Shown here piece by piece: positions 19,771 through 39,600 of a stretch of 64,000 bases of DNA. A program made the position numbers and the translations under genes. The notes under the pieces were generated by a model. It worked only from the letters and a program-made list of their open reading frames with translations, had not been told where the DNA came from and ran no database searches. Origin of the DNA: Firmicutes bacterium CAG:345 (GTDB taxonomy: Bacteria > Bacillota_I > Bacilli_A > RFN20 > CAG-288). Location: the NCBI GenBank assembly GCA_000433315.1, contig FR893362.1, positions 3,941-67,940 of the forward strand, given 5' to 3'. The first letter of the stretch is position 1. Each line of letters opens with the position of its first letter.

Positions 19771-19812
19771 AAAAACTCCTTGGTTAAAAATATAACCAAG
19801 GAATTTTTTATT
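19771..19812. terminator. bidirectional rho-independent terminator
   Basis: 9-bp stem tccttggtt/aaccaagga (19777-19785 / 19794-19802), with T-runs on both flanks. It serves the plus-strand small gene and sits after the minus-strand 1022-aa ORF stop. Confidence 0.6.
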
Positions 19813-22800
19813 TACCCCAACTAGATTTAAAAGTAACTTCTCCATCAGCACTTAGCGTTAGTGTAATGAATAAGCTGCTATTTCCAATATAAACAACTAT
19901 AGAGTAAGTCGCTGATCCATCTGCATTTCTTACAATATTTTGACGGATGTTATCAGAAGTTAACGAAACACAATCAAATGAAGTTGTACCATCCTCATTC
20001 ATTTGATATCCGGTCAAATACATTAAACCATCTTCAAAAGTAAATGTGTAGATAACGTCATCAGTTTCACCTTCTATTTCATAAATTCCATTGAATTGCG
20101 TGTAGAAATCAGAATAGAAAACTTCACCAGACAATATAGGATTAGAAGAGAGGGTACCAACAATATTTCCAGAAACAACTTCAACTGTAAAATCAATATT
20201 CAAGACATAAACGAATTCATTGAAATAATAAACCGATAATTGATTGATAATTGCAGTTCCATTATTGTCAGAATCTAAATCAACACTAACAATATCTTGG
20301 CCAACTAAATATGTCATTCCATTTTCAACAACATAATCTAAGCTTTCATATTCATAGTGCAAATCACCACCATCTAAAACAGCACCTGAACTGGAAATAT
20401 TCAATGTATAATTTGTGCCATATCCATAATCGATCCAAGTTCCATAAAAATTAAAATATGAACTCTTATGCAATGTCATATTGGATAATGAAGATCCGCC
20501 ATTATAATAGCAAAGTAACTCAGTTCCATCACCAATAAGAATATAAGCAGGTTTCCCTTCAATAAGAGCATAAAAAGATGCACTCTCACTAACAAAAAAT
20601 AGACTTGCTTCAATTGGAGTAGATTCAACGCCATCAACAATTGTCTTAAATGTCATCACCAAATGATTTTCGGCATTATCAGGATCTTCAGCAATTGTAT
20701 CTTGCTTGATAGTAATAACAATCGAGTCGCCATTTCTATCAATTATTTTCCAAGTTCCAGTAACATCGCTTTCATATTGATCAAAGGCGCTTCTTAAAAC
20801 TGCATAATATGTAGGAGTAGAAGATGAACTGGAAATAAGATTTATAACTAATGTATCACTATATACTTCTTTGTTGATAGTTGGTTCATAATCTAAACGA
20901 TAATTATTACCACCATCAGTAAATGATAAATTACCATATTTATCAACTGTAATATTAACTTCTTTCTTATTATGACTTAAATCGTAATAAGTCATAGTTA
21001 ATTTTTCTTTTCCACCAATACTTTTTATAGCAAAAGATAAATCTTCATAGAAATAAGTTGAATTTTGAAAATCGCTAACTGGTAAAACCAATTCTTCAAA
21101 TATATATGAATAATTAGCATTTAAATCAAATACTTCAGAACCATTTAAAGTAAAACGATAATTGTTTTTATTAGATATATTAATTGCTAGAACATCACTT
21201 CCAGAAGTAACATTAATAACATTTGGTTTATTTAAATCAAATGAATAAGTATATTCACCCGAAACAACACCATCAAGAATAGAATTATCTGAAAAAGCAA
21301 TAAATTTATGTTTGAAAATTTTCAAAACATTATCTGCTAGTTCTTTATTAATAAGACCTTCAGAAACAAATTGTCCGTTTTCTAAAGTATAAATAGAAGC
21401 AAAATTATAACTATTTTGAACTAAATATTTTTCTTTTCCTTCATCAGTAAATCTAATCGCCATCTGTGCTTTAGATTTATTATCTAATTTTATAAAAGCA
21501 TAATCATAAGAATAATTTTTTCCATTAAAAGTTAAGCTTTCATCATTGATAGTTAAAGAAGCATCATTTCCTTTGCACCACGTTTCATTATCAAAAAGAT
21601 TTGTGTAATTCTTTAATCTCACATTTGAAACAATAGTTTTATCATTTTCCAAAACTTCAAGATAAATAGCAACACCTATTGCTGAATTAGAATCAAAACG
21701 TGTTGATAAAACAAATTTCTTTCCATCAGCTTCAAAATAATATCCATAAGATCCATCGCTAAAAATATCAATTTTTGGAGTATATATACCACCATTATAA
21801 ATAACCGAAAGAGTTCCATCACTTTCAAGTTTTGTTTTAAATGAATAATCGGCATTAGAAACACCAATAGTATTTAAAGAAGATGGGATACTATCCGAAG
21901 TCAAAAGACCTTCAAAAGGTGTATATGGTATTGTATAAATAGTTTTATCAGATTTACCACTTTCATAATCATAATATTTAACAATAGAACTCTTATCTTG
22001 ATATAAAAATTCAGCTACTTTATTGCCTTTTTCATCAGATAAAGTAAATCCAACATTTTTTTCTGAAGAGGTTGCAGATAAAATATTATAAATAGTATAT
22101 GTATATTTATTTCCATTCATGTCGATGGCAGTTTGATCTTCTAGATTCATACTGTAACCCAAATTGCCACTAACAAATAATGTTTGAGAATAGATCTTAG
22201 CGATATCAGGACTATTGACGTTACCAGTCAATTTAATCCATTCTCCGTCAACTTCTTCCTCATACATAATAAATGATTTAATAGTACTATCAACTAATCT
22301 TTGTTCATAAACACGATAATTAGTACCATCTACAACAAAAGAGAAATACACTCTTTCATATTTATCTGTAGAATCAATTAATTTTCCAGAAGAATACATT
22401 AGATAACTTCCAAGCTCTGCTGTAACAGTTGCTGAAACATTTTCAAATTTTATTCCTTTGGAATCACTAGTTGGTAAAACACCAGAAACCAAAACATTTT
22501 TATTGCTGTCTTCATGTATATTAACTGATTCATTTTCATCATGAATCCAATTTCCAGTTAAAGAATCATAAGAAATTAATTTTGCTTTTAAAGAAATATC
22601 TGCATAAAGAGGATATTCAGCTGAATAATAATATTCAGCATCTCCAATAGATAAAACATAACTGTTTGATAAAACAACATTATTTTGTTGATTTATTACC
22701 TTAGCATCGGAAGAGCTGAAGTTTTCACCATATCCAATCTTAGTAACATCAGTATAAGTTGTTCCATCAGAATTATAATTTAATAAAGTAACAGTTAATT

Positions 22801-22876
22801 CTTTATGAGTTGTTGGAATAACTTTTAATTCCACACTATCATTTGCTATAGCCCAGTTTTCTTTGCTCCACGGCAT
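19808..22876 (-). CDS. large secreted or surface beta-rich protein (1022 aa) with no signal peptide or ribosome-binding site of its own; in frame with the upstream Glug lipoprotein ORF
   Basis: Rich in S/T/N/Y/G, and no Shine-Dalgarno sequence before its ATG. It shares a reading frame with ORF 22922-24319 and is separated from it only by one TAA plus 15 stop-free codons. Confidence 0.55.
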   Translation of the reverse strand: MPWSKENWAIANDSVELKVIPTTHKELTVTLLNYNSDGTTYTDVTKIGYGENFSSSDAKVINQQNNVVLSNSYVLSIGDAEYYYSAEYPLYADISLKAKLISYDSLTGNWIHDENESVNIHEDSNKNVLVSGVLPTSDSKGIKFENVSATVTAELGSYLMYSSGKLIDSTDKYERVYFSFVVDGTNYRVYEQRLVDSTIKSFIMYEEEVDGEWIKLTGNVNSPDIAKIYSQTLFVSGNLGYSMNLEDQTAIDMNGNKYTYTIYNILSATSSEKNVGFTLSDEKGNKVAEFLYQDKSSIVKYYDYESGKSDKTIYTIPYTPFEGLLTSDSIPSSLNTIGVSNADYSFKTKLESDGTLSVIYNGGIYTPKIDIFSDGSYGYYFEADGKKFVLSTRFDSNSAIGVAIYLEVLENDKTIVSNVRLKNYTNLFDNETWCKGNDASLTINDESLTFNGKNYSYDYAFIKLDNKSKAQMAIRFTDEGKEKYLVQNSYNFASIYTLENGQFVSEGLINKELADNVLKIFKHKFIAFSDNSILDGVVSGEYTYSFDLNKPNVINVTSGSDVLAINISNKNNYRFTLNGSEVFDLNANYSYIFEELVLPVSDFQNSTYFYEDLSFAIKSIGGKEKLTMTYYDLSHNKKEVNITVDKYGNLSFTDGGNNYRLDYEPTINKEVYSDTLVINLISSSSSTPTYYAVLRSAFDQYESDVTGTWKIIDRNGDSIVITIKQDTIAEDPDNAENHLVMTFKTIVDGVESTPIEASLFFVSESASFYALIEGKPAYILIGDGTELLCYYNGGSSLSNMTLHKSSYFNFYGTWIDYGYGTNYTLNISSSGAVLDGGDLHYEYESLDYVVENGMTYLVGQDIVSVDLDSDNNGTAIINQLSVYYFNEFVYVLNIDFTVEVVSGNIVGTLSSNPILSGEVFYSDFYTQFNGIYEIEGETDDVIYTFTFEDGLMYLTGYQMNEDGTTSFDCVSLTSDNIRQNIVRNADGSATYSIVVYIGNSSLFITLTLSADGEVTFKSSWGK

Positions 22877-22921
22877 TGCTGAAAAATCTTGAAGATAAAA
22901 TTCATTTTTACTGGAATAAGA

Positions 22922-24319
22922 TTAAAAACATAAAGAAAAATCACCATATCCAGCACCTAAAAGGTAATAAGATACATCATCTTGAGAAACATAAGTTGAT
23001 TGATAGAAATTACCATCAAATAAGGATGCGTAAATCTTAGAATCTTCCGAAAGATAAGCTACTAATCCGCCTAATGTAGCCGTTCTATAATTTCCTAAAT
23101 AAGCTCCTGAATAACTCTGTGAAATAAATGAATTATTAGAAGCATAACCAACTAATCCACCAATAAGACTTCCACCAACTACTTCTCCTTTAACTAAGCA
23201 AGAATCTATTGTAGTATCTTCTATTTCACCAACTAATCCACCTACAGTAGCCCGTGACGCTCCTTTATAACCAATATCAATATTGACATTAAGTTCAATC
23301 CCAACTAAAGTAGAATTTATTGCTCTGCCTGCTAAACCACCAACTTTGGAATTATTGATATTGGCATTTTTACTGCTAACTGCAATATCTAACTTCAAAT
23401 TACTAATTTGGGCATTAATCAATTCAGTGAAAAAACCAACAGATGAATTTTGTGATGCTGGAGAAATAGTAATTCCAGAAATCTTATTTCCATTGCCATC
23501 TATAATGCCTGAAAATACAGGAAATCCGGAAAATTTATCTTCTTCCGTTAATTCAATATTATTTTCAAGAGAATAATAACCAGTAGAGTAATTTACTCCA
23601 TTTTTATAAGAACCATTAGATATCAATTTAGCTAATTCAATAATATCAGTTTTAGTTTTTAATAAGAAAGGAGAAGAAGATGTTCCATCTCCTTCAAGTT
23701 CATATGTAAAATTAGGTGTTAACCTAATATCTGAAGTTATAGCAGAAGCAAAAATAAACTCTTTTCCATCGAGCAACCAGTTATTAAAAGTAAAGTGCTC
23801 TGGTGCTTCAATCGCAGGAGCTTCGCTTGCTTTTATAGAATTTCCATAAACAACTTTTTTTACTTCTAAAACATTATTATCAGAATCAAGATATGTAACA
23901 GAATAATAATAACGTGCTTGCAAAGTAATACGTGAATTTATCGGTGTATTCTCATCAAAAGGTTTTCCTTGATAATACCATCCAGCAAACTCATGTCCTG
24001 AACCATCATCAATTACTTCAGGAAATTCAGCTATTTTTCCACCTTTTTCAACGGATGTACTTCCTAAATTTGTTGAACCATTTTGATCAACAAATGTTAC
24101 GACATAAGTTCTAACATTCGGATTAGAAGAAATAGATGAAGTAGAACTCGAACTCGAAATAGTAGAAGAAATGCTTGATGAAGTTGACGTTGAGATAGAT
24201 GAAGAAGATGATGAAGTAGAACTTGAACTATTTGGTTTATTGCAAGATGCTAATCCTAAAGAAAGTATTCCAGAAGCAAGTAATATTGTCCAAATAGAAA
24301 CTTTGAATTTATTTTTCAT
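22922..24319 (-). CDS. lipoprotein with a Listeria-Bacteroides (Flg_new) repeat and Glug-type repeats
   Basis: Signal peptide plus lipobox LGLASC, a poly-Ser/Thr linker, EFAGWYYQGKPF (Flg_new-like), and multiple GGLAG/GGLVG Glug motifs. Confidence 0.6.
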   Translation of the reverse strand: MKNKFKVSIWTILLASGILSLGLASCNKPNSSSSTSSSSSSISTSTSSSISSTISSSSSTSSISSNPNVRTYVVTFVDQNGSTNLGSTSVEKGGKIAEFPEVIDDGSGHEFAGWYYQGKPFDENTPINSRITLQARYYYSVTYLDSDNNVLEVKKVVYGNSIKASEAPAIEAPEHFTFNNWLLDGKEFIFASAITSDIRLTPNFTYELEGDGTSSSPFLLKTKTDIIELAKLISNGSYKNGVNYSTGYYSLENNIELTEEDKFSGFPVFSGIIDGNGNKISGITISPASQNSSVGFFTELINAQISNLKLDIAVSSKNANINNSKVGGLAGRAINSTLVGIELNVNIDIGYKGASRATVGGLVGEIEDTTIDSCLVKGEVVGGSLIGGLVGYASNNSFISQSYSGAYLGNYRTATLGGLVAYLSEDSKIYASLFDGNFYQSTYVSQDDVSYYLLGAGYGDFSLCF

Positions 24320-24334
24320 AGATTCTCCTTTTTA

Positions 24335-24586
24335 TTAATGAAGCCATAAATACATAAGAAATATGGCTAATGAGAACGCAGCAATAACAATTAGAAAAAT
24401 AGGTGCATAAATAGAAAACGCAGCGCGAATCATCGCCCAGCGTTCTCTAAATGTTATCTTCAAATCATCTGCTTTTTTATTTTTTTTACGATCATGCCAT
24501 TTAAAACCTTCGATATCCATATTATAAACAGTATGACCATCATCGACATATTTTGGTTTCTTTTCTTTTTTATTTTTCATAAGCAA
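24335..24586 (-). CDS. small membrane protein with a basic N-terminus and a C-terminal transmembrane helix
   Basis: 83-aa ORF, 4 nt downstream of oppF. Confidence 0.4.
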   Translation of the reverse strand: MLMKNKKEKKPKYVDDGHTVYNMDIEGFKWHDRKKNKKADDLKITFRERWAMIRAAFSIYAPIFLIVIAAFSLAIFLMYLWLH

Positions 24587-24590
24587 GAAA

Positions 24591-25841
24591 CTATTTATCT
24601 TTTTTATTTAATTTTTTTATAAAATTCTTAACATCCAATTTTTTCTTAGGTTCTTCTAGAACTTCTTCTGTCACTGGATGATTCTTTTTCTCTTCCTCTT
24701 CCGCTAATTTCTTAGCTTCCAATTCTTTATTTTTTTCTAACATATATTCATCATATAAGTGACAAGCTACAAAATGATCTTTACCATGTTCTAAATAACG
24801 CGGTGCACAAACCTTACAAACTTCCATGCAAGAAGAACATCTTGTGTGGAATTTACATCCCTTAGGAGGATTAGCCGGTGAAGGAATATCTCCTTCGAGA
24901 ATAATTCTATTCATCTTAGCATCAGGATTTGGTACTGGTACTGCAGAGAATAAAGCTTTTGTATATGGATGTAATGGATTTTTAAAAATTTCTTGTGTAT
25001 TTCCAAGTTCCATCATGTTTCCTAAATACATAACTAAAATTCGATCAGTAATATATTTAACAACCGATAAATCATGGGAAATAAACACATATGTCAAGCC
25101 CATCTTATTTTGCAAATCTTTTAAAAGATTGATAATTTGAGCTTGAATGGAAACGTCAAGAGCTGAAACTGGTTCATCGCAAATAACAAGTTTTGGATTA
25201 ACTGCTAAAGCTCTAGCAATACAAATTCTTTGACGTTGTCCACCAGAGAACTCATGTGGATAGCGATCATAATATTGAGGTTGTAATCCACATAAAGACA
25301 TGATCTTATGAACATGTTCTTTAACTTTATCTTTCGGAACAATTTGATGAACTTTTACAGCTTCGGAAATAATAGCTCCAACTGTCATTCTAGGTGGTAA
25401 AGAAGAATAAGGATCTTGGAAGATAAGTTGCATATCAACTCTCATCTTCAACAAATCTTTTTTCTTAATCTTTGCTAAATCCTTGCCTTCGAAGAAAACT
25501 CGACCACCTGTAATTGGATATAATCTAAGTATAGTTCTACCTAAAGTAGTTTTACCACAACCAGATTCACCAACAACACCAATTGTTTGTCCTTTCTTTA
25601 CTCCAAAAGAAACATCATCTACTGCACGTAAATATGAACTAGGCCTTCCAAATACATCAGGATTTAATGGAAAATATTCTTTTAAATGTTGAACTTCCAA
25701 AATATATTCAGGATTAGGTTCACTATATTCATTATTATCGTTAATAATTTTACCTTTTTTTATAATCAATTCATCAGAAGTAGATGCTTTTTTATCAACT
25801 TTATTATTTTTCATCATTTCCTCCTTTGTTTTGATTATCAT
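24591..25841 (-). CDS. oppF: oligopeptide ABC transporter ATP-binding protein (OppF-like) with a long charged C-terminal extension
   Basis: Walker A GESGCGKTT, signature LSGGQRQR, Walker B LVICDEPVSALD, and a C-terminal oligopeptide (HPYT) domain. Confidence 0.85.
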   Translation of the reverse strand: MIIKTKEEMMKNNKVDKKASTSDELIIKKGKIINDNNEYSEPNPEYILEVQHLKEYFPLNPDVFGRPSSYLRAVDDVSFGVKKGQTIGVVGESGCGKTTLGRTILRLYPITGGRVFFEGKDLAKIKKKDLLKMRVDMQLIFQDPYSSLPPRMTVGAIISEAVKVHQIVPKDKVKEHVHKIMSLCGLQPQYYDRYPHEFSGGQRQRICIARALAVNPKLVICDEPVSALDVSIQAQIINLLKDLQNKMGLTYVFISHDLSVVKYITDRILVMYLGNMMELGNTQEIFKNPLHPYTKALFSAVPVPNPDAKMNRIILEGDIPSPANPPKGCKFHTRCSSCMEVCKVCAPRYLEHGKDHFVACHLYDEYMLEKNKELEAKKLAEEEEKKNHPVTEEVLEEPKKKLDVKNFIKKLNKKDK

Positions 25842-27030
25842 ATAAATGGCAATAAACTAAATGAGTTGGCGATACATTAGATATTGTTGGATAATGACCA
25901 TCGCATGCTTTTGTACAACGATTGCAACGATCTTTAAAGAAACAATAATCTGGCATATTAATCGGATTAGGAACTTGTCCAGGAATCGAATAAAGTGGCT
26001 CATTTGCATCTGATGTAATGAGTGGTTTACTCTTTTGTAACCCTATTGTATATGGATGTTTCGGTGTATAGAAAATTTCACGAACAGTTCCTTTTTCAAT
26101 AACACGCCCAGCATACATAACAACAACTTCATCAGCCATTTCTGCAATAACACCCAAATCATGCGTAATGAGCATGATAGCACAACCTGTTTTCTTTTGG
26201 ATACTCTTTAATAGATCAAGAATTTGAGCTTGAATAGTAACATCAAGAGCAGTTGTAGGCTCATCAGCAATAATTAGTTTCGGATTACCTGACAAAGCCA
26301 TAGCAATCATAACACGTTGTCTCATACCACCAGATAATTCATGTGGATATGAATTATAGACGCGTTCTGGCATAGAAATACCTACAGTTTTAAGCATTTC
26401 AATACTATGTCTTTTTGCTTCTTCTTTCGATGTTTCAGGATAATGGATAAACATAACTTCATCCATTTGATTACCGATTGTAAAAATAGGATTTAAGCTT
26501 GTCATCGGTTCCTGGAATATCATTGTAATATCTTTACCACGGACATTATACATTTGTTTTGTCGGCATTTTAGCAATATCATATGCTAATTTGTTGCCAT
26601 TTTCATCTTCGCCAAGATCATCGGAATTAAACCTAATTTGACCACCGACAACTTGACCTTGTGGCGATTGAACAAGTTGCATAATAGATAATGAAGTAAC
26701 TGATTTACCACAACCTGATTCACCAACAACACCGACAATTTTTCCTTTTGGAATATTAAAGGAAACTTTGTTGACAGATTTAACTGTACCATTATCAGTA
26801 AAGAAGACTGTCTCTAAGTCTTCAATTTCAATAATATTATTCTTATCCTTCATCGTTGTAATATAATTAGAAGGATCTGTATTTTTCTTTTTTAAATTTT
26901 CGTAGTACCGCATTTGTTGAATATTATGCTTTAAAATATTGCGGCTTTCTTTTAAAGTCATGTAATTAGAGTTCTTTTTTCCTTCTTTCTTTTTATTAAG
27001 AAGATTTTTGAAAGTAGTTACTAATTTCAT
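25804..27030 (-). CDS. oppD: oligopeptide ABC transporter ATP-binding protein (OppD-like)
   Basis: GESGCGKSVT, LSGGMRQR, IIADEPTTALD, HPYT. Confidence 0.85.
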   Translation of the reverse strand: MKLVTTFKNLLNKKKEGKKNSNYMTLKESRNILKHNIQQMRYYENLKKKNTDPSNYITTMKDKNNIIEIEDLETVFFTDNGTVKSVNKVSFNIPKGKIVGVVGESGCGKSVTSLSIMQLVQSPQGQVVGGQIRFNSDDLGEDENGNKLAYDIAKMPTKQMYNVRGKDITMIFQEPMTSLNPIFTIGNQMDEVMFIHYPETSKEEAKRHSIEMLKTVGISMPERVYNSYPHELSGGMRQRVMIAMALSGNPKLIIADEPTTALDVTIQAQILDLLKSIQKKTGCAIMLITHDLGVIAEMADEVVVMYAGRVIEKGTVREIFYTPKHPYTIGLQKSKPLITSDANEPLYSIPGQVPNPINMPDYCFFKDRCNRCTKACDGHYPTISNVSPTHLVYCHLYDNQNKGGNDEK

Positions 27031-27038
27031 ATTTTCAC

Positions 27039-28139
27039 CTACTTTCTAGCCTTTGGATCCATGGCATCACGCAAGCCATCACCAATAAAGTTAAATCCAA
27101 GAACAGCTAATGCAATAAGCAAACCAGCTGGCAACCATACAAATACATAGTTATTTAATACAACTGGGTCATTTGATAAAGAAATCATAGTACCCCAAGC
27201 AGCATAAGGAACTTGAACACCTAAGCCTAAGTAACTCAATGTTGATTCATAAAGAATAACACTACCTAAACCTAATGTCATTGAAACAATAAGCTGAGGC
27301 ATAACATTTGGAATCAAATGCTTAAATATTTTTCTCCATGTAGGTAAACCCATAACTTCTGTAGCAGTTATATATTCTTGTTCACGAAGACTTAAAATTT
27401 GACCACGAACCATACGAGCTGTTCCAGACCAACCAAAGATAGTAATAATTACCATCAACCAATAAATTCTTAAACTTCCTGGAACTCCATTTGCATCAAG
27501 AATAGAGGAAGCAATAAGAAGAATAGGCATTGTAGGAAGACAGTTAAATACATCGACTATACGCATGATTATTTGATCAACCCATTTGCCAAAGTAACCA
27601 GAAATTCCACCGATTATCGTTCCTAAAACAGTTTCCAAAATAACAACGATAAAACCGATTGCTAAAGAGATTCTACCACCATACATCAATCTGGCAAATA
27701 CATCCATTCCTTTATCATCTGTTCCAAGTAAATGTGTCCAGCTTGGAGAAGCAAAGGAATTTATGCTCTTATAATAAGGAACTACTTCTTTAATTGTTAC
27801 TTCTTTACCATCTGGAGTAACAAAAGTAACAAGTCTCTCAGTAAAAGCTAAAATTTGAGTTCTATCTACTTCTGTTTCTCCCCACGCACGATAGATAACA
27901 GGGCCAAGGAAAGAGAATAAGAAGAGAAATACAATAATTACAATACCAACTATAGATAATTTAGAACGGAAGAAACGTCTCATGACCAAACGAATTGGAG
28001 ACATTTCCTTATAATTGGCGAACATATCTTCTTGACTAGATTCGCCATTATTTTGATTGTCCCCATTTTGTTCTTCAGAGGTTTTAAAAATTTCTTCTTG
28101 TTCGTTTTCTAATTTTTTTTCTATTTCCATAATAATCAC
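27039..28139 (-). CDS. oppC: oligopeptide ABC transporter permease (OppC-like)
   Basis: Polytopic protein of the binding-protein-dependent transport family with an EAA-like loop, positioned between oppB and oppD. Confidence 0.8.
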   Translation of the reverse strand: MIIMEIEKKLENEQEEIFKTSEEQNGDNQNNGESSQEDMFANYKEMSPIRLVMRRFFRSKLSIVGIVIIVFLFLFSFLGPVIYRAWGETEVDRTQILAFTERLVTFVTPDGKEVTIKEVVPYYKSINSFASPSWTHLLGTDDKGMDVFARLMYGGRISLAIGFIVVILETVLGTIIGGISGYFGKWVDQIIMRIVDVFNCLPTMPILLIASSILDANGVPGSLRIYWLMVIITIFGWSGTARMVRGQILSLREQEYITATEVMGLPTWRKIFKHLIPNVMPQLIVSMTLGLGSVILYESTLSYLGLGVQVPYAAWGTMISLSNDPVVLNNYVFVWLPAGLLIALAVLGFNFIGDGLRDAMDPKARK

Positions 28140-29143
28140 CTGCTTAAACGAACACGTGGATCAACCACGGAATACATAATATCTGAGAACAAAGTTCCAA
28201 GGACAGATAAAATAGCTAAGAACATGTTGTATCCCATAACAAATGGAATATCAGCCTGTGTTGTAGCTTTATATGCAAGGTTACCAATACCATTGATACC
28301 GAATACTTGTTCAGTAATCATCATACCACCAAATAATGATGGTAAGATTCCTGCGAGGAGTGTAACAAGTGGAATAAGTGTATTTCTAAAAGCATGTTTA
28401 TAGATAACTCTTTTTTCACTTAAACCCTTAGCACGAGCTGTTCTAATGTAATCAGCACTTAATACTTCCAAAGTGTTTGTTCTTGTATAACGCATCAAAC
28501 CACCAATGGAAAGAAGAACAGATACAAAGATTGGCAAAACTAAGTGCCATGCCATCGAACCAAGTTTTTGGAAAAAGCCTCCGATAGTATTTGGGAAGGT
28601 TGCTGAAGCATCGATAAGTCCACTAGCTGGGAACCATCCTAAATCAACAGCGAATACTTTGATAACAATTGCACCAAAGAAATATGTTGGAAGGGATATG
28701 CCTAACATCGTTAATACAGTAACTGTATAGTCGCGGACTGAATATTGGTGAGTAGCACTGGAAACACCAAGAGGAATTGCAATTAAGAATTGGAAAATTG
28801 TTGCAATCAAAGCTATGCTGAAAGATACCCACATATTTTCAGAAATGACTTGGGCGACAGGTTTACGATAAATGAAGGAAACACCTAAATTTCCACGTAA
28901 CATATTGCCTAACCAGCCAATATATCCTTTGCATATTCCTAAAAATGAATTGTCATCCAATCCATATAATTTCAAATAAATATCAATACTCTCTTGAGAT
29001 ACAGCTCCTGACATCAATTGCGATGAGAATTTTTGCATAATATAGTTGTTAGGAATTAAACGAACCATAAAATAAATAATTACAGAAACGCCAAGAAGTA
29101 CTACTAAAGATATCAATATACGCTTAACTATATATTTAAACAT
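28136..29143 (-). CDS. oppB: oligopeptide ABC transporter permease (OppB-like)
   Basis: Six-transmembrane ABC permease. The EAA-like loop reads YIRTARAKGLSEKRVIYKHAFRN. Confidence 0.8.
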   Translation of the reverse strand: MFKYIVKRILISLVVLLGVSVIIYFMVRLIPNNYIMQKFSSQLMSGAVSQESIDIYLKLYGLDDNSFLGICKGYIGWLGNMLRGNLGVSFIYRKPVAQVISENMWVSFSIALIATIFQFLIAIPLGVSSATHQYSVRDYTVTVLTMLGISLPTYFFGAIVIKVFAVDLGWFPASGLIDASATFPNTIGGFFQKLGSMAWHLVLPIFVSVLLSIGGLMRYTRTNTLEVLSADYIRTARAKGLSEKRVIYKHAFRNTLIPLVTLLAGILPSLFGGMMITEQVFGINGIGNLAYKATTQADIPFVMGYNMFLAILSVLGTLFSDIMYSVVDPRVRLSR

Positions 29144-29147
29144 AATA

Positions 29148-29173
29148 CCACCAAAAGCAAGGCGATTTCTCGC
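29148..29173 (-). promoter_or_regulatory. GC-rich 11-bp stem-loop between oppA and oppB, a likely intra-operon attenuator or partial terminator
   Basis: aagcaaggcga-tttc-tcgccttgctt is a perfect 11-bp stem in an otherwise AT-rich genome. Confidence 0.5.
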
Positions 29174-29185
29174 CTTGCTTAATTA

Positions 29186-31780
29186 TTATTTTCTATTAGA
29201 GAAATCGTTGTTGTTGCCAACGTAACCAACTTCCCAAATTTTACTTAATAAGCCATTATATGAAGAACGATCACTTTCTTTTGTAAATGTGCTTTCATCA
29301 AGTTTATTCTTATTGTAAGCGAATAAATCATCTCTTTGATATGTTGGAAGTTCAACAGCCAAATCCATAACTAAGTCTAAACATTCAGAATAAATAGATT
29401 TACGTGTATTTTCATTTAATGTTTTACGAGCAGCATCAATTTTTGGAGATAACTCATTTTTAATAAGATTTTCTTCAAAGTCATACTTACCACCAGCATT
29501 TTTTCTAATAGCATTATAACCCCAGTTCAATGTTGAAGTTGCTTTTGAATCCCAGTGATAAACTTGATACATATCTGGATCAATTGTACTACCCCAAGCA
29601 GCTGCCCAAACAGTCAAAGCACCGATTGATAATTTACTTAAAGCATTGGAGTCATTTGTAACTGTAATCTTAAATCCATGTTCATTTAAAATTTCAGAAG
29701 CATGGAGCAAAGCATTATATGCAGGGTGATCAGTTTCTGCACCAGCAATAGTGAATGTATATTCAAGCTTATCGCCATTTAATTGATAAATACCATCTCC
29801 ACCTTTTGTATATCCAGCATCGATAACTAAATCTTCTGATATCTTACCAGTGCTATCATAATCATAATATAATCCAGCTTCTTTTGGATAAGCCCAAGAA
29901 GAACGGGACATAGAACGATAAACAGGAGAAGCAGAGTCACCATAATATGTTACAGTTTCTTGAATATCAATAGCATGCATAATAGCACGACGAACGTTGA
30001 CACTAGGAACTTTAGCAGCATTGATACCAATATAACCATAACCAGCAGTTTCAATAGAAGTGCTGCCAATTCCTTGAGAAGACAAATTATTTAATTGTCT
30101 AACAATTTCAGGTTTACAGTTAGGTTGAGTAAAGTCAACTGCACCAGTTGTCAAAACGTCGACCATACGTGATGTAGGGACAATTTGATAACGAAGATAT
30201 TTGATAAGTGGTTTTCCTAAAAGGAATTTATCATTTCTTTCATAGTAGATAACGTTATTGTTGCGGAAACTACCAGATGTAACATTTTCAGTTCCACCAT
30301 TGCTATTAGCAGCAACATATGGACCAGCACCAACTGGAACGCCAACTTTATCAGGACTATTTACAACGTTTTCATAGAATTCTGAATTACCATATTCAAC
30401 ACCGAAATTAGATTCATAGTCAAAAGCTTTGATATGTTCAGCATCAGAATAATAATACATTGGAGCAACACCGAAGGAGAAGTTCCAAATAGCTTTAGGG
30501 TCAACATTATTAATAGTGATGGACAAAACTTCATTATAGTCTTTATTGACAGAACCATCAGCATTATAATGTGTTCCACAAGCTTCATAAGTTTTGCCAT
30601 TTACTGTAACAGCTTCATCCTTATTGACAAATTTAATACCAGAAATATTAGGGAATTGACGTTTTCCAGAGTTCTTTAAGTCTTCGAAGTATTTAGATTT
30701 TGCTTGATTGACTAAATAAGTATCTAAATCAGAACCAGCAGACCAATAATCAATAACTTCAGAAACACCAGTTGGATCACTCATTTTATGATTATAAACA
30801 GCGTTGATTGCTTGTTCAGAAGTCCAAGAGCGAACTTCTTTATAATCACTGGCTAAATCACATGTAAACGAACCTTGACCTTTTTTATTGAATTGAATAT
30901 AACCTTCACTATATAAGAAAGCTTCAACATCTGTAGTGAAAACATTCTTTAATGTGCCACCATCTTCGTTTTTAAAACTATAATCTGTAGCTGAACCTTT
31001 AGCATTAGTAAAGTCAGTTTCAAGCATTTCCTTAAATAAAGATAAAAGTTTTTGGAAATCTTCAGCAACATGTTCATAAACACCAGAAGAAGACTTGCTA
31101 GCAAGGTATGAATAAATTTGATCAGAAGTTAAAGATTCATCATGTTCATCATCAATTTCCTGAAGAGCTGCTTTTAAATCATCAATACGAGCAGTAGCTT
31201 CGATTTGGAATTGTGATTCGAATCTATCTTGTTCATCCTTTCCTTCCTTACCTGTACGATATTCACTAAGACCAACAATGTCTGTGGAATAAATTGTACT
31301 TGAACCACTATAAACTGGATCAAGGTAAGTATAAAGATTGAATAAAACATCCTTCATTGTTAATGGTGAACCATTTGAGAAAAGAATATCGTTTTTTAAG
31401 ACAAAATAATAGGTTGTCTTTAAATCAACATCTTCTACACCATTATTGCTCTCTTGAGCATAATCTAAAACAACTGTGGCTTCATTTTCACCATAGGCAA
31501 TATTACCTTGTTTATCATTGGTGAGCATACCTATCTGTGTTAAGCTAATAACATTAGAGTCGGCAGTATTTGTTGAGTAAAATGGGTTAAAAACACCATC
31601 TACTTCAGCAGATGACATAACAAAAGGTGTTGTATCATTATTATAATTAGTTGTACTTCCAGAACTGTTAGATGAATTTGAAGAATTGGAAGTGTTAGAA
31701 TTTGAACAACCTGTTAAAACTAATGATGATAAAAATAAAGCAGATAATAAATAATTCTTTTTCATTTTTTCTCCTTTCAA
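29186..31780 (-). CDS. oppA: large oligopeptide-binding lipoprotein (OppA, solute-binding family 5, Mollicutes-like size of 864 aa)
   Basis: Lipobox LVLTGC, a Ser/Asn-rich linker, and family-5 substrate-binding-like sequence. It sits immediately upstream of oppBCDF. Confidence 0.7.
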   Translation of the reverse strand: MKGEKMKKNYLLSALFLSSLVLTGCSNSNTSNSSNSSNSSGSTTNYNNDTTPFVMSSAEVDGVFNPFYSTNTADSNVISLTQIGMLTNDKQGNIAYGENEATVVLDYAQESNNGVEDVDLKTTYYFVLKNDILFSNGSPLTMKDVLFNLYTYLDPVYSGSSTIYSTDIVGLSEYRTGKEGKDEQDRFESQFQIEATARIDDLKAALQEIDDEHDESLTSDQIYSYLASKSSSGVYEHVAEDFQKLLSLFKEMLETDFTNAKGSATDYSFKNEDGGTLKNVFTTDVEAFLYSEGYIQFNKKGQGSFTCDLASDYKEVRSWTSEQAINAVYNHKMSDPTGVSEVIDYWSAGSDLDTYLVNQAKSKYFEDLKNSGKRQFPNISGIKFVNKDEAVTVNGKTYEACGTHYNADGSVNKDYNEVLSITINNVDPKAIWNFSFGVAPMYYYSDAEHIKAFDYESNFGVEYGNSEFYENVVNSPDKVGVPVGAGPYVAANSNGGTENVTSGSFRNNNVIYYERNDKFLLGKPLIKYLRYQIVPTSRMVDVLTTGAVDFTQPNCKPEIVRQLNNLSSQGIGSTSIETAGYGYIGINAAKVPSVNVRRAIMHAIDIQETVTYYGDSASPVYRSMSRSSWAYPKEAGLYYDYDSTGKISEDLVIDAGYTKGGDGIYQLNGDKLEYTFTIAGAETDHPAYNALLHASEILNEHGFKITVTNDSNALSKLSIGALTVWAAAWGSTIDPDMYQVYHWDSKATSTLNWGYNAIRKNAGGKYDFEENLIKNELSPKIDAARKTLNENTRKSIYSECLDLVMDLAVELPTYQRDDLFAYNKNKLDESTFTKESDRSSYNGLLSKIWEVGYVGNNNDFSNRK

Positions 31781-31785
31781 AATTA

Positions 31786-32973
31786 TTAATATAATGTTTT
31801 TTCTAAAGTGATTTGATATAAAGAAACGGCTTCTGTAGTAACTCTCAAATCATTCATAGTTGTTTGAGTAATACTGAAATTTGTTACTGTAGAATTACCA
31901 TCTTCATCTTCGAAAATAGCCTTGCTTAAATCGTATTCTAATGGACGATTTGTCCTGCTAGAGATATTGACGGTGTAATTAGAAACAGCAACATTATTTA
32001 TTATAGCACCTTTTGCACGTCCAGCCAAAGAACTAATATAAACATTTTGTGTACGAGTATTTTGTGTTTCAACATCGACTGAGAAGTTGTCAAATGTAAC
32101 ATCTTTAACAGTGGCTTCATTTAAATATGGGAATATTGCAATATATAAATCACCTTGAGTTTGTTTATTATATTGTAATTTGAAATTTCTAATTGTGTGG
32201 CCGTTGCCATTGAATTCTCCACGATAATTATTGAATAATGGGAAATTCTCGCCATTAAAATCGATATCATTATAAAGTAAGACATTGGCAGAACCACTTA
32301 CTTTTCTTAAATCGGAAATAGTGCGAACAACCGTATAATCACCTTCATAGAATTTAGCATAAACATTAACTACTGGAGATTCCTTATCTCCAGGATGTTT
32401 AAACTTAGAATCCCATAAAGTTGTTAATTCTTCATCGCTATAAAAATCTAAGAATGTGTATCCTTCAAGAGATTTAGTATAATTTCTATAATCCTCGAAT
32501 TCCGCTCCTTTTTCAGTATCATAGACACCTAATGATTTAACTTCTCCAGAAACAGGATCAGTATAGCAAACATTGTATTGGAATTTGACATCTTCAGTCC
32601 AACAAGCATAAAGTGTTAAACCTTCAATACCAACTTTTTCAGTTTCGAAATCAAATGGATCTGAATATGTATAACTAGGATTATCTTCAGTACTTGTTGA
32701 ATCAAGAGTTCTAGTTTTATACCAACCTGTTAAAACATATCCTAATTTTCCGACAGTGCCTGCTTGATAAGGATCGAAAAGATAAGTTCTATCCTCTTTA
32801 CTTTCTAATTCATATTTATACTTAATGTATTCAGTATCTTTTTCATTGCACTGGCCACCATTTAAATAGAAATAAACTTCTGTTTCAATAGAGCCGTTAT
32901 TATTTGAATTACAAGAAACTAATCCAATTGAAGCGATTAACAAAGATAATAATAAAAACTTACTTCTTTTCAT
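31786..32973 (-). CDS. lipoprotein with a Flg_new (Listeria-Bacteroides repeat) domain
   Basis: Lipobox LVSCN and the LTGWY repeat signature. 395 aa. Confidence 0.55.
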   Translation of the reverse strand: MKRSKFLLLSLLIASIGLVSCNSNNNGSIETEVYFYLNGGQCNEKDTEYIKYKYELESKEDRTYLFDPYQAGTVGKLGYVLTGWYKTRTLDSTSTEDNPSYTYSDPFDFETEKVGIEGLTLYACWTEDVKFQYNVCYTDPVSGEVKSLGVYDTEKGAEFEDYRNYTKSLEGYTFLDFYSDEELTTLWDSKFKHPGDKESPVVNVYAKFYEGDYTVVRTISDLRKVSGSANVLLYNDIDFNGENFPLFNNYRGEFNGNGHTIRNFKLQYNKQTQGDLYIAIFPYLNEATVKDVTFDNFSVDVETQNTRTQNVYISSLAGRAKGAIINNVAVSNYTVNISSRTNRPLEYDLSKAIFEDEDGNSTVTNFSITQTTMNDLRVTTEAVSLYQITLEKTLY

Positions 32974-32984
32974 TTTTCGCCTCC

Positions 32985-33662
32985 TTAATTTGCAGAATAA
33001 TCAATAACTATATTATCGTAAGAAAAGTTATAAACTGCTTTAGCTTCTAAAGATAAATTATCTCCAAAATCAATATAAGAAAAAGTAAATGAAGTAAAAT
33101 GATCATTTTCAACTTTCAATTCAAATGCAAAATCTTTAACATTAGTAAAAGAACTTTCATTAAAGAAATTAGATAAAGAATCCTGTTTAACGTTTCCTTT
33201 AAATCCATCTGAAGTTTCAGTAACATTTTCAAGATATTTATCTTCAAAAGTGAAACTTAAGAATTGCTCAGGAATAACATAACTTTTTTCAGTAGTAATT
33301 CCATAGTTATCAGTATAGTATTGTGTTTCACCAATTGTTACATAAGAAGTATTTTCAATATTGTACTTATTAGGATAAGCAATACTGAAGTTAGGATTTA
33401 ATCTACTGGTTGAAGTTGAAAGACTTGTCCTGATTGAATCACCTCTTTGAATTTTGAATTCATTAGAAGTTTCATAAACTATATCATCACCATCTATCAA
33501 TTTGTAATTGCTAGAGTAAGATGTGAAATTATCAGAAGTATTAATATAAATTTGTTCGAGTTTAGAATGTGGAACATTTGAAGAAGAGCTATTGTTATTA
33601 TTGCAGCTAACTAACGAAATTGCCACTAAAGGGAGAAGGGCAACAATTAAAGATTTTCTCAT
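32985..33662 (-). CDS. hypothetical lipoprotein (225 aa)
   Basis: Signal peptide plus lipobox LVSCN. It overlaps the stop of the giant gene (ATGA). Confidence 0.5.
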   Translation of the reverse strand: MRKSLIVALLPLVAISLVSCNNNNSSSSNVPHSKLEQIYINTSDNFTSYSSNYKLIDGDDIVYETSNEFKIQRGDSIRTSLSTSTSRLNPNFSIAYPNKYNIENTSYVTIGETQYYTDNYGITTEKSYVIPEQFLSFTFEDKYLENVTETSDGFKGNVKQDSLSNFFNESSFTNVKDFAFELKVENDHFTSFTFSYIDFGDNLSLEAKAVYNFSYDNIVIDYSAN

Positions 33663-36600
33663 AATGCTGCACCTCCTTTCTTTTTAGTAACAATTAAGGC
33701 AACACCAGCTGCAGATACTAAAGCAACGATAGATGCAGTTACTGCAACTGCAACATTGCCAATTTTATTTACTGCTGCAGAATTTTCAATCTTGCTATTC
33801 AATGCATCAGTATAAGCTTTAAATTGAGCTTGGAAAGCATCTAATTTAGAAGTATCAAGATATTGACGATCTTCTTGATCGATCTTATTGACATTTCTTA
33901 ATATAGCAAGGTATTCATCAAGCTTAGATATACTGAACGAACCTAAATTATTGATATCATCTACCAAATAATCATAAGTCTTAGAAACTTGTTCACTCTT
34001 CAAATCATAATAAGTATTATAGGCATCTTCAAGTTTTAAAGCTAAATCAGTAACATCAGCAGATGAGTAGCCAAATTTTGTTAAATCTTGATTTAACGCA
34101 TTGTAATATGTACGACCATTTAATATAGCATCCTTATCTTTCAAAGTAATATTTTCAGGTAAAGAATTAACTGTATCAATATAATTCAAAGAATTTCTAT
34201 TCAATGTTTCACCAACTTCAGTTGTATTAACTTTATCGAAGTCGAAGTAAATAATATAAGGAATAGAAGAATATGTAGAAGCAACATAGTTAGATGGAAC
34301 AGCAACGCTCAATCTGCTAACAGTTCCAACATATCCAACAAATTGATTGTATCCAAGTTTAATATCACCATTGAAGTTAAGATATGCTGTCAAAATTTTA
34401 TAAATTTCAGAAGAGGTATCATAAGAAATACTGCTATTTAAAATTGTTGTAGTCAATTGTTCATCATAACTTAAAACTGGTAATTCATTTTGATTATCGA
34501 CAACATTCATTGCTTCAAGAGCAGGGGCATTAGTAGAACGGAAAGTAACTTTATTTAAATTGTTAGATCCGCTGAATGCACCGATTCCAATTTTAACTAA
34601 AGCATTAGATAATGTCACTCTTGTAAGATTTCTGACATTGCTTACAGCATACATTTGAATGTATGTTGCATCATCTTTCATAACAAAATCAACATCAGTC
34701 TTACTAGATGGATAACAGTTAAGAGCATACTTACCATTATTCATCTTAACATATAAAACGCCATTATCAATTAAGCAATAATCATTGACTTCACTTGTAA
34801 TCATGCCAAAGTTTGTGAAAGATGCTAATTTTACATTATTATAGAAGGCTGTTTCTCCTATATAAGAAATAGTACTTGGAATATCAACTGTTGTAATATC
34901 AAGTCCAGAGAAAGCTTGTTTTCCAATGTAATTAACGTTTGGCATATCAATTGTTTTAACTGCAGAAGCAGCTAAGAAAGCAAAATCACCAATTGTTTTA
35001 GCAGAAGATAAACTCAAAGAAGTTAATCCTTTAGCGGCATAGAAAGCACCTTTGCCGAAAGTTTCAACTTTACTTAAATTAATTGAAGAAAGTTTTGTAG
35101 TATTCTTAAATGCTTCGCTGCCAATATTTGTAATATTAGTAGCATTGACTGTAACAAGACTTGAATCGCCACTGAAAGCAGAATCGCCAATACTAGTTAC
35201 TTTTTCGCCTAAGCTAACTGTTGTTAAAGAAGTACAATTAGCAAAGCAAGATGTTGGTAATGAAGATAAAATACTAGATAAATTAGTTACTGTTCTTAAA
35301 CGTGCGCAATTTTCAAAAGCAGAATCACCAACATATGAAACATTGCTTGGAATTGTAATTTCGTTCATTCTAGAACCATAGAAAGCTTGACTACCGATAG
35401 ATGTTAATTTATTGCCAAGAGTAACTCTCATATTAGAATTAGAAATAGAAGCAAAGGCATTATCGCCAATTTCCTCAACATTTTCCAAATCTATTGTTGT
35501 CAATGAGTAATCGCCACTAAAAGCACCATTGCCAACACGACCAGCAAGGAATTTAAAATTGAACGAAGATAAACTTGTACATCCAGCAAAAGAATTATCA
35601 CCAACTACAACATTGCCACTTCCAACAAAACTTACTTTTGTTAAAGATGTAAGATTTCTAAAAGCATCAGTTCCTAAAGTAACATCTTGTCCAATAGTAA
35701 GAGAAACTAAGCGTGTACCTGCTAAAACATCAGCACCAACTTTAACCCCATTAGGAAGTACAAAGTCAGTAATTGATGTTCCACTAAATGCATTATCACC
35801 AATTTCTTTTAAAGTAGTAGGAAGTACAATTTCAGAAATAGAAGTATTTTTGAAAGCATTTTTCCCAATAGTTAATAATCCTTCTGGAAGTTTAACACTA
35901 GTTAAATCAGCAACTTTTTCAAAAGCATTATTTCCAATTGTTTTTAAAGTAAGAACGTTGCTTAAATCAATTGAAGTTAAACCTTTAATTGCACTGAAAG
36001 CACCAGAAGAAATTGTTTCAAGTCCTGGGAATTCAGTAGCAAAATCAAACGAAGTTATATTGCTATTTGGAGCAACTAAATAAATAGTTTTTCCATCAGC
36101 ACTAACCAAAACATTATTTGATATATTGGTTTTATAATTGATATTATCAGTAGCTACTTCAAAAGATGATACAGTGTTTGGAACAACAGAAGTACCAATC
36201 TTTTCAATGAATGTCTTACTGGCTAAAACTAATTTATCCAAATTGGTGCAACCAGAAAATACATCATCTTCTAAAGTAATATTGCTAGATGGAAGAGTGA
36301 AAGTTGTTAAGCTTAAGCAATCAGCAAAAGCTTCATTATCAAAGTATTCCACACCGCCTTTAAATGTAACTGAACTTAATGAAGTATTATTTTTGAAGGC
36401 ATATTGGCCTACAAAGATTAAGTCATTTTCAACAGTGACTTTCTTTAAAGAAGTGCAATCTTCAAAGCAACCTTCTGGAATTCTATCAGTATAAATAGTG
36501 ACATCTTCTAGTCCAGATCCTTTGAACATATTTTTAGAAAGTTTGGTATATTCACCAGAAGTAAATGATTTTAAAGAAGTACAATTTTCAAATGCTCCTG

Positions 36601-39600
36601 TACCTGCATTTCTAAGTGTCGTTATGTCAACAGTTTTTAAAGAAGTACAATTTCTAAATGCATTTTCTGCAAGAGCATAAATGTTAGAAAGATCAGCTTC
36701 CTCTAAAGCAACACAACCATCAAAGGCAGCTTTATTAATTATAGAAACAGTTCCAATATTAGCTTTCTTTAAAGAAGTACATTTTTGGAAAGCATATTGA
36801 TTGATTGTTGTAATGTTTTGATTAGAAGTTGGAGTTGCATTTGGATTGACTTTAAATTCAACTTCTTGAAGATTCGAACAATTGTAGAATGCATATTTGC
36901 CAATTGTATTAACAGAATAAGGAATGATTACTTTTGTAATAAATTCATTGCCAGCAGGGATTTTATTAGCATCCCAATCGTCTTCATTGACAATAATCGA
37001 CATATCTGTTGTATAAGAAGCGAAAGCATAATCAGAAATTTCAGTCAAGTTAAGTCTTTCTGGAATCTCAACAACACCATTTTCATCGCCTATACCTTTA
37101 TAAGCAACTAATTTACCATTTTCAACAACAAATGGACTATTGACTACAATACGTTTACTAGCTAAGATGCTCGATTGTACGCCATCAATTGATACTCTCA
37201 ATGTTAAAGTAGCAGAGCCTTCTTTGAGAGCAACAACATGGCCATCTTGATCAACTGATAAAACGTTAGGATTAGATGTTGACCAAGTTAATTCATAGCC
37301 TTGTAAATTCCATGGAGTAATTTCATAGTGCATGTAGATTTTTTCACCTGGATACATAGATATAGCACCAGTATATGAAGAAACATAGTTTGAACTGCCT
37401 GTAGTTCCAATATTAGCAGTTTGTCCCCCACGAGGGAAAGCAAACTCTGTATCAAAATATGTAAATTGAATATCTTTTAAAGTTGTAGCAGCTTTTAAAA
37501 TCTTATTCGAATTACGAGTGACGATCAAACGCAATGTTGCTCTTGCAACATATCCATCTGTTGTAACAAAGCTAGCTGTAATAGTTGAAGTGCCAGCAGA
37601 TAAGCAATCTACTTGACCACCTTTAATAATAGCAACTGATTCATTGCTTGAAGACCAAGCAAGTGAAGACATATATTTTTGTTTTTCAGCTTCATTCAAA
37701 TTTTTAAAATTTTCAGAAGAAGAATTGATATATTGTGTTAAATCTATTGTTTCACCAACTTTTCCAGAAATTGATTGAAGAGCTAATCCTTCTGAATTAA
37801 CAAAGTTAATAGAGCCTTTAGAATCAATATCTGTACCTGGAAGATTGACAAAATAGTAATTGGAATTCATTGCATAGTCTTCAACCATGATACCTATACC
37901 ATTGGTTAAAGCTAAACCATTAGCACCTGAGCCATTTGCTAAGCTTGGCAAATAATCAGTGATTTCAAATCTTACAGAAGATGTAGTTCCTTTTTCTGTT
38001 CCATAAACTGGAATTGGAGTAGAAGAAAGATCAACTAAACTGCCAGCTTGTAAAATAAATGGACGAATATCCATAGCATAGTGATTATCATAAACTTCAA
38101 CAGTTAAATAATAGCGATAATCTCTTAAAGAGCGATCATATTCTGATTCATATTTAACATTTTTAATAATAGGAGCTTCATTATCAGCTGTAAATTTAAA
38201 TGAGAATGTATTATTTAAATTTGTATTGACGCCACCATCACCATAGTCTAATTTAGCTTCCATAGAAACTGTGTAAGTTGAATTATTCTTAAGACCTACT
38301 TCAGTAGCTAAGATATTCAATAAATCAGTAGAAGGATAGCCATTATATGCACGAATCTGATCATGATTTACATGATAATAAATCACTTCGCCTGTAGCAT
38401 CATCAGTAATTTTAGTAATTACTTCTTTACCACCTCTCATCAAACCGGCATAAATTGTTGTAATACCATTGATAGATGTAGAACTTGTACTAATTGCAGC
38501 ATGTTCCTCAGATGCTGGAATAGCGTCGTATCCACTAGGAATATCATAAACATAAGAACCTAATGGAATAATGTAGTTAGAGAAATATGTTCCATAAGGA
38601 GTTGTAGCATAATAATCAGCTTTAATTTTATCTTCATCATCTATTGCTTGATTATGAGCAGTAGATTCAACTTCATAGAAAGTCTTATCAAATATTGGAG
38701 CCTTTGTCCAATCGCCAAAGAAGCCAAGATATGGAGCATTTAAATCGATTTTAGCTTCGGTATTATCTTTGAGACAAGTGAAACCTTCGATATACATACC
38801 ATTAGGGAATAATTCCTTAATTGATCTTTTTTCTTCAGCAGAAAGAGTTAAAGTTTGTTCTATTGTTACAACACTATTAGCAGGAACTGTAACAACATCG
38901 CCTTCTAATGTACCAACATCAGAAAGAAGTTCTACTGATTGTGAAGGATTTAACATATTTGCGTGTTCAGCAACATATCTACTATCATAAGTCGAAACAG
39001 ATTCAGTCATTGTTTCATTGCTTATTGTATATGAAAGTGAGTCTGTAGAACTCATATTTACAATATTATATTTGAGTTTATAAACACCAGTTTCATTTGG
39101 ATCATCACCTATTTCAAGTTTACTTCTATCAGTGCCATCAACAGTGATATATCCTTGAGTGGTTGTAGCTTCCTTTAAACTGGCTAAACCAGCGCCTTGC
39201 TTACGAGGAGAATATGGGTTTCCATATTGATCCAAAGCAATAGTTGCAGTAGACATTAAAAGTTGCATTGATAAAGCATTGACTTCTGTTGGTTTAAATT
39301 CTGGGAATTTTTGTTTAACGTATTGACGAATTAAAACAATAGCACCACACATGTTAGGTGAAGCCATAGAAGTACCACTTAATGTATTGTATTTGTTTCC
39401 TGGGATAGCTGAAAGAATATTACCACCATGAGCAGTAATTTCTGGTTTTAATTTTAAATCAGGAGTTGGACCCCAGCTAGAGAAATTTGACATGAATGGT
39501 CCAGCTTGTTGTTCGCGGCTAAATGTTAAAGAACCACTAGATTTTTTAGCTAAAACTTCACCATCATCTTGGCTGATTGAACAGAAAGGAATAGCTAAAT

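Follow-up and report, generated by a model that had tools for sequence, protein, structure and literature searches.

The window analysed here is a 64-kb stretch of Firmicutes bacterium CAG:345, an uncultured human-gut bacterium. The gene under study lies on its minus strand at the 3′ end of an Opp operon, and appears in the annotation as two separate open reading frames (ORFs), one of 465 codons and one of 1022 codons. From 24319 to 19808, the minus strand reads as one 1504-codon frame. Translation revealed a sole internal stop in this frame, a TAA at codon 466, ahead of the gene's own stop codon at 19810..19808. The 465-residue product encoded upstream of the TAA displays a signal peptide with a lipobox, a long Ser-rich linker, Flg_new repeats and a region resembling GLUG. 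The lipobox could be read straight off the translation (MKNKFKVSIWTILLASGILSLGLAS-C26, lipobox LASC with Cys26) as a match to the pattern [LVI][ASTVI][GAS]C. The ORF downstream of the TAA, deposited as an 'unknown' protein, begins at an ATG that follows 15 sense codons.

It had been proposed from the letters of the sequence that the two ORFs occupy the same minus-strand frame and are separated by one TAA and 15 stop-free codons. Translation confirmed both the coordinates and the frame. The remark in this original prediction that the 1022-residue ORF lacks a signal peptide and a Shine-Dalgarno sequence also agreed with our inspection; a signal peptide was absent from the translation, and we found zero matches of four or more bases to AGGAGGT at positions -20 to -4 relative to the ATG at 22876. 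The length of the whole gene, given as 1488 codons, had to be corrected to 1503 (465+1+15+1022). The prediction had further argued that, with about 8% stops per codon, a stop-free linker in the same frame is unlikely to arise by chance. The stop frequency was accurate (0.082), but the argument is weak on its own. Based on base composition, a stop-free stretch of 15 codons has a probability of 0.28 at 0.082 stops per codon, and of about 0.09 when the same-frame requirement is added. We therefore did not use chance as evidence, and relied on homologues for proof. Within the 64 kb, the TAA at 22924..22922 was the only in-frame stop with at least 120 open codons on either side.

Concerning the ancestral state of codon 466, an exact look-up placed both window ORFs (CDD22529.1 and CDD22528.1) in a 90%-identity cluster of 791 members. 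The representative of this cluster, P0001, is a protein of 1503 residues that displays 99% identity to the fused query over 100% of its length and harbours Gln at position 466. Among the 40 cluster members read, intact alleles comprised 12 distinct sequences of 1503 residues on at least 76 contigs, and every one of the 12 has Q466; one of them (P0105) accounts for at least 24 contigs, drawn from many runs. At the nucleotide level, CAA was found in 12 of the 12 other-strain loci that span codon 466 (L006, L007, L010, L011, L013, L014 and L026-L031). Eleven of these loci contain an uninterrupted ORF, and L007 has CAA at codon 466 but carries a different stop, G405*. TAA at codon 466 was observed only in the window and in loci L001-L005. 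The alignments are gap-free over 4512 nt and codon 466 differs at its first base alone, TAA versus CAA. On the coding strand, this amounts to a C>T transition (plus-strand position 22924, G>A), corresponding to Q466*. These comparisons support the view that a single surface-lipoprotein gene has been split by one in-frame TAA. The non-matching ends of two further loci, L015 and L016, were considered as possible structural variants and rejected; they are high in G+C, unrelated to the window and on contigs with about twofold coverage, and were taken as chimeric joins.

The TAA is the consensus in five contigs, which derive from ERR321150 (a Logan contig and a k127 ENA assembly), ERR209142, ERR209143 and a scaffold of SAMEA2142583. 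The assemblers differ (Logan, a MEGAHIT-style k127 assembly and a scaffolded ENA assembly), and the material consists of three runs in two ENA projects and one sample record; independence here refers to runs and assemblers, and not necessarily to hosts. Over up to 6252 bp, each of the five contigs matches the window at 100.000% identity, the other strains being about 99.76% identical. The TAA allele is reproducible and is confined to one strain.

We then asked what the orthologues of the distal part look like, with an exhaustive phmmer search of 1.84 billion cluster representatives using the 1022-residue part as the query. Three matches were obtained: P0117, a fragment from the same species, P0119, a weak match to a repeat protein, and P0118, a protein of 1633 residues. 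Among these representatives, P0118 is the sole real relative of the distal part outside the species. P0118 and P0001 aligned in one unbroken high-scoring segment pair, covering residues 83-789 with 31% identity and running across the junction (...GDFSLCFQSYSSKNEFYLQDFSAMPWSKENW... in P0001 and ...GEFYAC--AYARNNGLVVAD---MPWLATNW... in P0118). At the position of the stop, P0118 has a sense codon or a gap. Met482, where the 1022-residue ORF was called to start, is situated within an MPW..NW motif, with MPWSKENW aligned to MPWLATNW in P0118. The 'start' of this ORF is therefore a conserved internal residue, and the orthologues are not two genes. P0118 also shares the architecture of the proximal part, with a lipobox (LGVAGC), a Ser/Thr-rich linker, three Flg_new repeats and a GLUG-like region. 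The uninterrupted frames of about 1500 codons for which the original prediction had proposed to look are thus present in conspecific strains (1503 residues) and in P0118 (1633 residues), and neither of the findings it named as contrary evidence, orthologues with two separate genes or an error in the frame, was encountered.

The domains of the protein were examined in detail. The Flg_new (Listeria-Bacteroides) repeat, PF09479, matched residues 72-135 of the 465-residue product with 45.1 bits (cut-off 27), and P0118 with 95.3 bits over three stretches. The Pfam model for GLUG (PF07581) gave no match on P0001 at E≤5, and its score on P0118, 15.9 bits, was below the cut-off of 20.5. Phmmer revealed homology between residues ~200-440 and more than 75 large surface proteins bearing PF07581 (E values down to 8e-28), which fades by about residue 470. 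As the homology is significant without the Pfam threshold being reached, we refer to the region as GLUG-like; the earlier designation 'Glug lipoprotein' holds with respect to the lipoprotein, and with respect to Glug only by homology. In the 1022-residue part, no Pfam or NCBIfam family was identified, and a lenient self-BLAST of the distal part revealed no internal repeats. Repeated lipocalin-like modules, a guess based on G-x-W motifs, were dropped as a result. An AlphaFold2 model of the 1022-residue part, calculated from an alignment of two sequences, was unusable, with a mean pLDDT of 33 and a pTM of 0.22. The distal part is predicted to be mostly beta strand and, judging from the searches above, its ~1000 residues are near-orphan.

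The polymorphism within the species indicates how the gene is maintained. Across strains, segregating sites amounted to 21 synonymous, 15 non-synonymous and 2 nonsense changes, and the ratio of non-synonymous to synonymous polymorphism (pN/pS) was 0.08 for codons 1-465 and 0.26 for codons 467-1503. Within the species, purifying selection acts on both halves of the gene, and the value of 0.26 indicates coding constraint on the distal part. Apart from the stop, the TAA strain has just two private changes in the gene, both G>A transitions (Table 1), and its copy contains no frameshift, no second stop and no further decay. Taken together, the two private changes, the purifying selection and the absence of further decay indicate that the stop is recent. 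We conclude, with a probability of roughly 0.9, that the TAA arose recently through a nonsense mutation specific to one strain, a single CAG:345 clone, and that it is an ordinary change and not a recoding signal. Among the options raised beforehand, a recent nonsense mutation is therefore the one that we favour, CAA being ancestral, TAA being present in one strain and the distal part being constrained. The term pseudogene, attached to that option, is somewhat too strong, as a lipoprotein of 465 residues can still be made.

The consequences for the protein would be as follows. The C>T change at codon 466 (CAA to TAA) would truncate a surface-lipoprotein gene of 1503 codons. Translation would start from the ATG at 24319, which is accompanied by a Shine-Dalgarno sequence, signal peptide and lipobox, and would end at 22924..22922. 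The 465-residue product would be exported, lipidated at Cys26 and displayed as a membrane-anchored protein, retaining the Ser-rich linker, the Flg_new repeats and most of the GLUG-like region, while the distal ~1037 residues would be lost. Re-initiation at the ATG at 22876, 45 nt downstream, would probably be inefficient; its product should be scarce and cytoplasmic because there is neither a ribosome-binding site nor an export signal. The truncated product is presumably stable and the distal part presumably not expressed; selection for the TAA allele is less probable than neutrality or a mildly deleterious effect. The '1022-residue ORF' is not a gene but a remainder that is presumably untranslated. 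The lipoprotein gene is the last in its transcription unit, with a hairpin and a small gene in convergent orientation beyond it, and therefore polarity on other genes should not matter.

Several points weigh against this interpretation. Synthesis of the 465-residue product without the distal part is a prediction from the sequence. The support for TAA at 22924 comes from assembly consensus. In addition, the runs with TAA may share one individual, or may be the source samples of the CAG:345 record itself.

An error of sequencing or assembly, in which the true genome has CAA and the deposited TAA is an artefact, would be in line with a single-base substitution in a metagenome-assembled genome, and with the fact that every TAA contig comes from one strain, possibly from related samples. 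Against this, five contigs from differing assemblers agree on this base in their consensus, the flanks are neither a homopolymer nor a repeat prone to systematic miscalls, and substitution errors do not repeatedly become the consensus at one site. Because a substitution error repeated at consensus level across runs is very unlikely, we treated the allele as real, which it almost certainly is; the suggestion of a sequencing error is accordingly improbable in view of the agreement among ERR321150, ERR209142, ERR209143 and SAMEA2142583 through different pipelines, and we regard an artefact as very unlikely. The other possibility raised by the original prediction was regulated readthrough or suppression, with the TAA sometimes decoded by a suppressor tRNA or owing to a leaky context, so that a short and a full-length surface protein would be made side by side. 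Known examples of recoding in bacteria and phages include selenocysteine at UGA and the readthrough extension of the Q-beta coat protein, and the signals involved are conserved among relatives and need specific contexts or RNA elements. The 1037 open codons beyond the stop, and a linker with the same residues as in the intact allele, would fit such a mechanism, but both are equally expected of any recent nonsense mutation. What the gene shares with recoding systems is only a stop with a long open frame beyond it; here the stop is private to one strain, being absent from all other strains and from P0118, and its context is that of a standard terminator. Of the window's 43 long ORFs, 26 end in TAA, and no stop context is more frequent than TAAT (14/43). 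In bacteria, termination at UAA is efficient when U comes next. No RNA structure was apparent in the 131 nt from just before the stop, whose minimum free energy was -18.9 kcal/mol against a shuffle mean of -20.3 kcal/mol (z=+0.39). No other gene in the 64 kb is split in the same manner, and the sole tRNA in the window is Ile-GAT. Readthrough is thus left unsupported by the strain-private stop, the standard TAAT context and the lack of RNA structure, and we consider it extremely unlikely.

The remaining alternative is that truncation is adaptive, loss of the distal 1000-1100 residues of this exposed lipoprotein being recurrently selected in the gut, for example through escape from a phage that uses it as a receptor or from host antibodies. 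Different strains would then acquire stops independently towards the end of the GLUG-like region. A possible second stop is present in a different strain background: in L007 (GGA>TGA, G405*), Q466 is intact, the single-nucleotide polymorphisms differ and the stop lies 61 codons upstream of Q466*. This allele was read from a single Logan contig. Two other loci, L008 (ending at nt 1212) and L009 (nt 1213), from samples ERR11503985 and SRR30025666, end exactly at the G405* nucleotide, which could reflect polymorphism within the samples (a branch in the assembly graph), a site-specific G>T artefact or coincidence. Coincident ends are also found elsewhere without a known variant, as the end of L003 and the start of L012, from different strains, coincide at nt 1609 (window 22711). 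Contig ends are therefore not random, and the argument from L008 and L009 is weakened. L024:1-2776 (ERR4091225) has 1-nt deletions in an A6 and a T6 run, at nt ~2799 and 3721, which leave the distal part in three ORFs, and can be cited for the same alternative. We rejected it as a third disrupted allele, since homopolymer deletions in one contig are typical of platform error, and a decayed allele is the less likely explanation. Both stops lie at, or close to, the point where the GLUG-like module, which is widely shared, gives way to the orphan distal part, as recurrent selection might produce. On the other hand, intact alleles are the large majority, compared to one Q466* strain and one G405* contig, purifying selection acts on the distal part (pN/pS 0.26), and two nonsense alleles in an accessory gene of 4.5 kb are unremarkable over hundreds of metagenomes. 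We therefore regard adaptive truncation as unlikely. A more elaborate version, which we consider very unlikely, would make the lipoprotein the terminal, conserved component of a peptide-acquisition locus consisting of a cell-envelope subtilase, OppABCDF, the small membrane protein and the giant lipoprotein, with the exposed distal module under conflicting selection and the boundary stops (Q466* and G405*, perhaps also segregating in additional samples) acting as recurrent, selected on/off variants instead of reflecting random decay. A recent nonsense mutation in one clone remains our preferred explanation.

Table 1. Features of the split lipoprotein gene, of its alleles and of its surroundings. 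Coordinates refer to the window unless a locus is named.
Feature	Position	Strand	Basis or remark
Whole ancestral gene, 1503 codons + stop	19808..24319	-	Window translation; intact alleles in other strains
Shine-Dalgarno AGGAG, 5 nt upstream of true start ATG 24319	24325..24329	-	Sequence
Remaining 465-codon ORF; GenBank CDD22529.1	22925..24319	-	Translation, Pfam, homology
Premature stop TAA, codon 466; ancestral CAA (Gln)	22922..22924	-	Translation and strain comparison
15 sense codons SYSSKNEFYLQDFSA, codons 467-481 of the intact protein, presumably now untranslated	22877..22921	-	Translation; same residues in P0001
ATG called as start of the 1022-residue ORF; actually internal Met482	22874..22876	-	ORF list, P0118 alignment
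Cut-off C-terminal part, residues 482-1503; GenBank CDD22528.1 ('unknown')	19808..22876	-	ORF list, exact look-up
Private synonymous change, codon 800, ACG>ACA	21920	-	Strain comparison
Private non-synonymous change, codon 1215, GAT>AAT, D1215N, downstream of the stop	20677	-	Strain comparison
Possible second nonsense allele G405* (GGA>TGA), other strain; window has wild-type G	23107..23105 = L007:2468-2470	-	L007 (ERR13285115)
Upstream operon context	24335..31780	-	Pfam/NCBIfam, gene order
Conserved small membrane protein, 81-83 residues, ending 15 nt before the lipoprotein start	24335-24586	-	
OppF	24591-25841	-	
OppD	25804-27030	-	
OppC	27039-28139	-	
OppB	28136-29143	-	
OppA-like SBP_bac_5 protein, 864 residues	29186-31780	-	
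Two ORFs without Pfam family, between subtilase and Opp cluster	32985-33662, 31786-32973		
2517-residue Peptidase_S8 (subtilase) + PA + seven BspA-type LRR (leucine-rich repeat) stretches	33659-41212	-	Upstream of Opp cluster
Chimeric ends	L015:1-253, L015:1509-1947, L016:1302-2154		Apparent joins to other organisms

In Listeria monocytogenes, two reports describe natural single-base nonsense alleles of inlA, the internalin A gene (premature stop codon, or PMSC, alleles), which segregate among strains and lose the C-terminal part of the protein (PMC12427964, PMC5131979). These inlA PMSC alleles are the closest known parallel to the case described here, as a large Gram-positive surface protein is cut in some strains and intact in most or many. 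The Listeria-Bacteroides or InlB B-repeat (Flg_new) domain type is common to internalins and the lipoprotein. The mode of anchoring differs: InlA is anchored through a C-terminal LPXTG motif and is freed by truncation, whereas the lipid of the protein studied here is N-terminal and its truncated product should stay attached. A further difference is that inlA has many independent PMSCs with attenuated invasion, whereas here there is one well-supported and one weakly supported allele, and no phenotype.

Residues ~200-440 also resemble GLUG (PF07581) proteins, a group that comprises InlB B-repeat-containing proteins and, by their N-terminal regions, the Zmp metalloproteases of streptococci. Flg_new repeats upstream of the GLUG region are typical of such surface proteins, matching the architecture found here, and NCBIfam gave a weak match to ZmpA (residues 895-1077). 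Unlike the Zmp and GLUG proteins, the lipoprotein contains no protease or other catalytic domain and, unlike the GLUG proteins, it has ~1000 distal residues without relatives beyond this species and one other lineage. A literature search on CAG-345 gave only Mendelian-randomization papers and nothing on the lipoprotein gene.

With regard to annotation, CDD22529.1 (465 residues) and CDD22528.1 (1022 residues) are two pieces of one gene, and the latter should not serve as the seed of a family or be included in gene counts. Conspecific alleles in public assemblies can quickly settle long in-frame splits of this kind in metagenome-assembled genomes. In biological terms, the TAA would be a routine segregating loss-of-function variant. 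A by-product of the analysis is the presence of a near-orphan giant lipoprotein at the 3′ end of an Opp operon in two lineages (~30% identity), which hints at a function that can be tested.

The same gene order is found at the P0118 locus (L018:496-12902), where OppA, B, C, D and F are followed by the small ORF and the giant lipoprotein, and then by Peptidase_M3. The OppA-like solute-binding proteins have 864 residues in the window and 858 in L018, and the small ORF is 61% identical between the lineages. Because this order is conserved in two lineages whose lipoproteins are ~31% identical, a role of the lipoprotein in peptide uptake can be considered, and the arrangement suggests that the lipoprotein and the small protein may work with peptide uptake as accessory parts. 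Together, the subtilase and Opp genes of the window resemble an arrangement of a cell-envelope proteinase plus a peptide transporter.

Scans of GTDB species-representative contigs by profile and by sequence, with a 335-residue piece spanning the junction and with the P0001/P0118 alignment, identified no orthologue, and gave just domain-level matches to unrelated GLUG or Flg_new proteins. The gene is thus missing from these scans despite its 99.6-100% conservation in the metagenome and Logan assemblies examined. The GTDB species representative may lack this region of the genome or may be absent from the collection.

Elsewhere in the window, there are two genes similar to elongation factor EF-G, at 42762-44834 and 54489-56552. 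One, encoding 690 residues, is situated beside EF-Tu in a block of higher G+C content (~40%) that resembles the str operon. The other, a paralogue of 687 residues, is on the other strand and has weaker domain scores.

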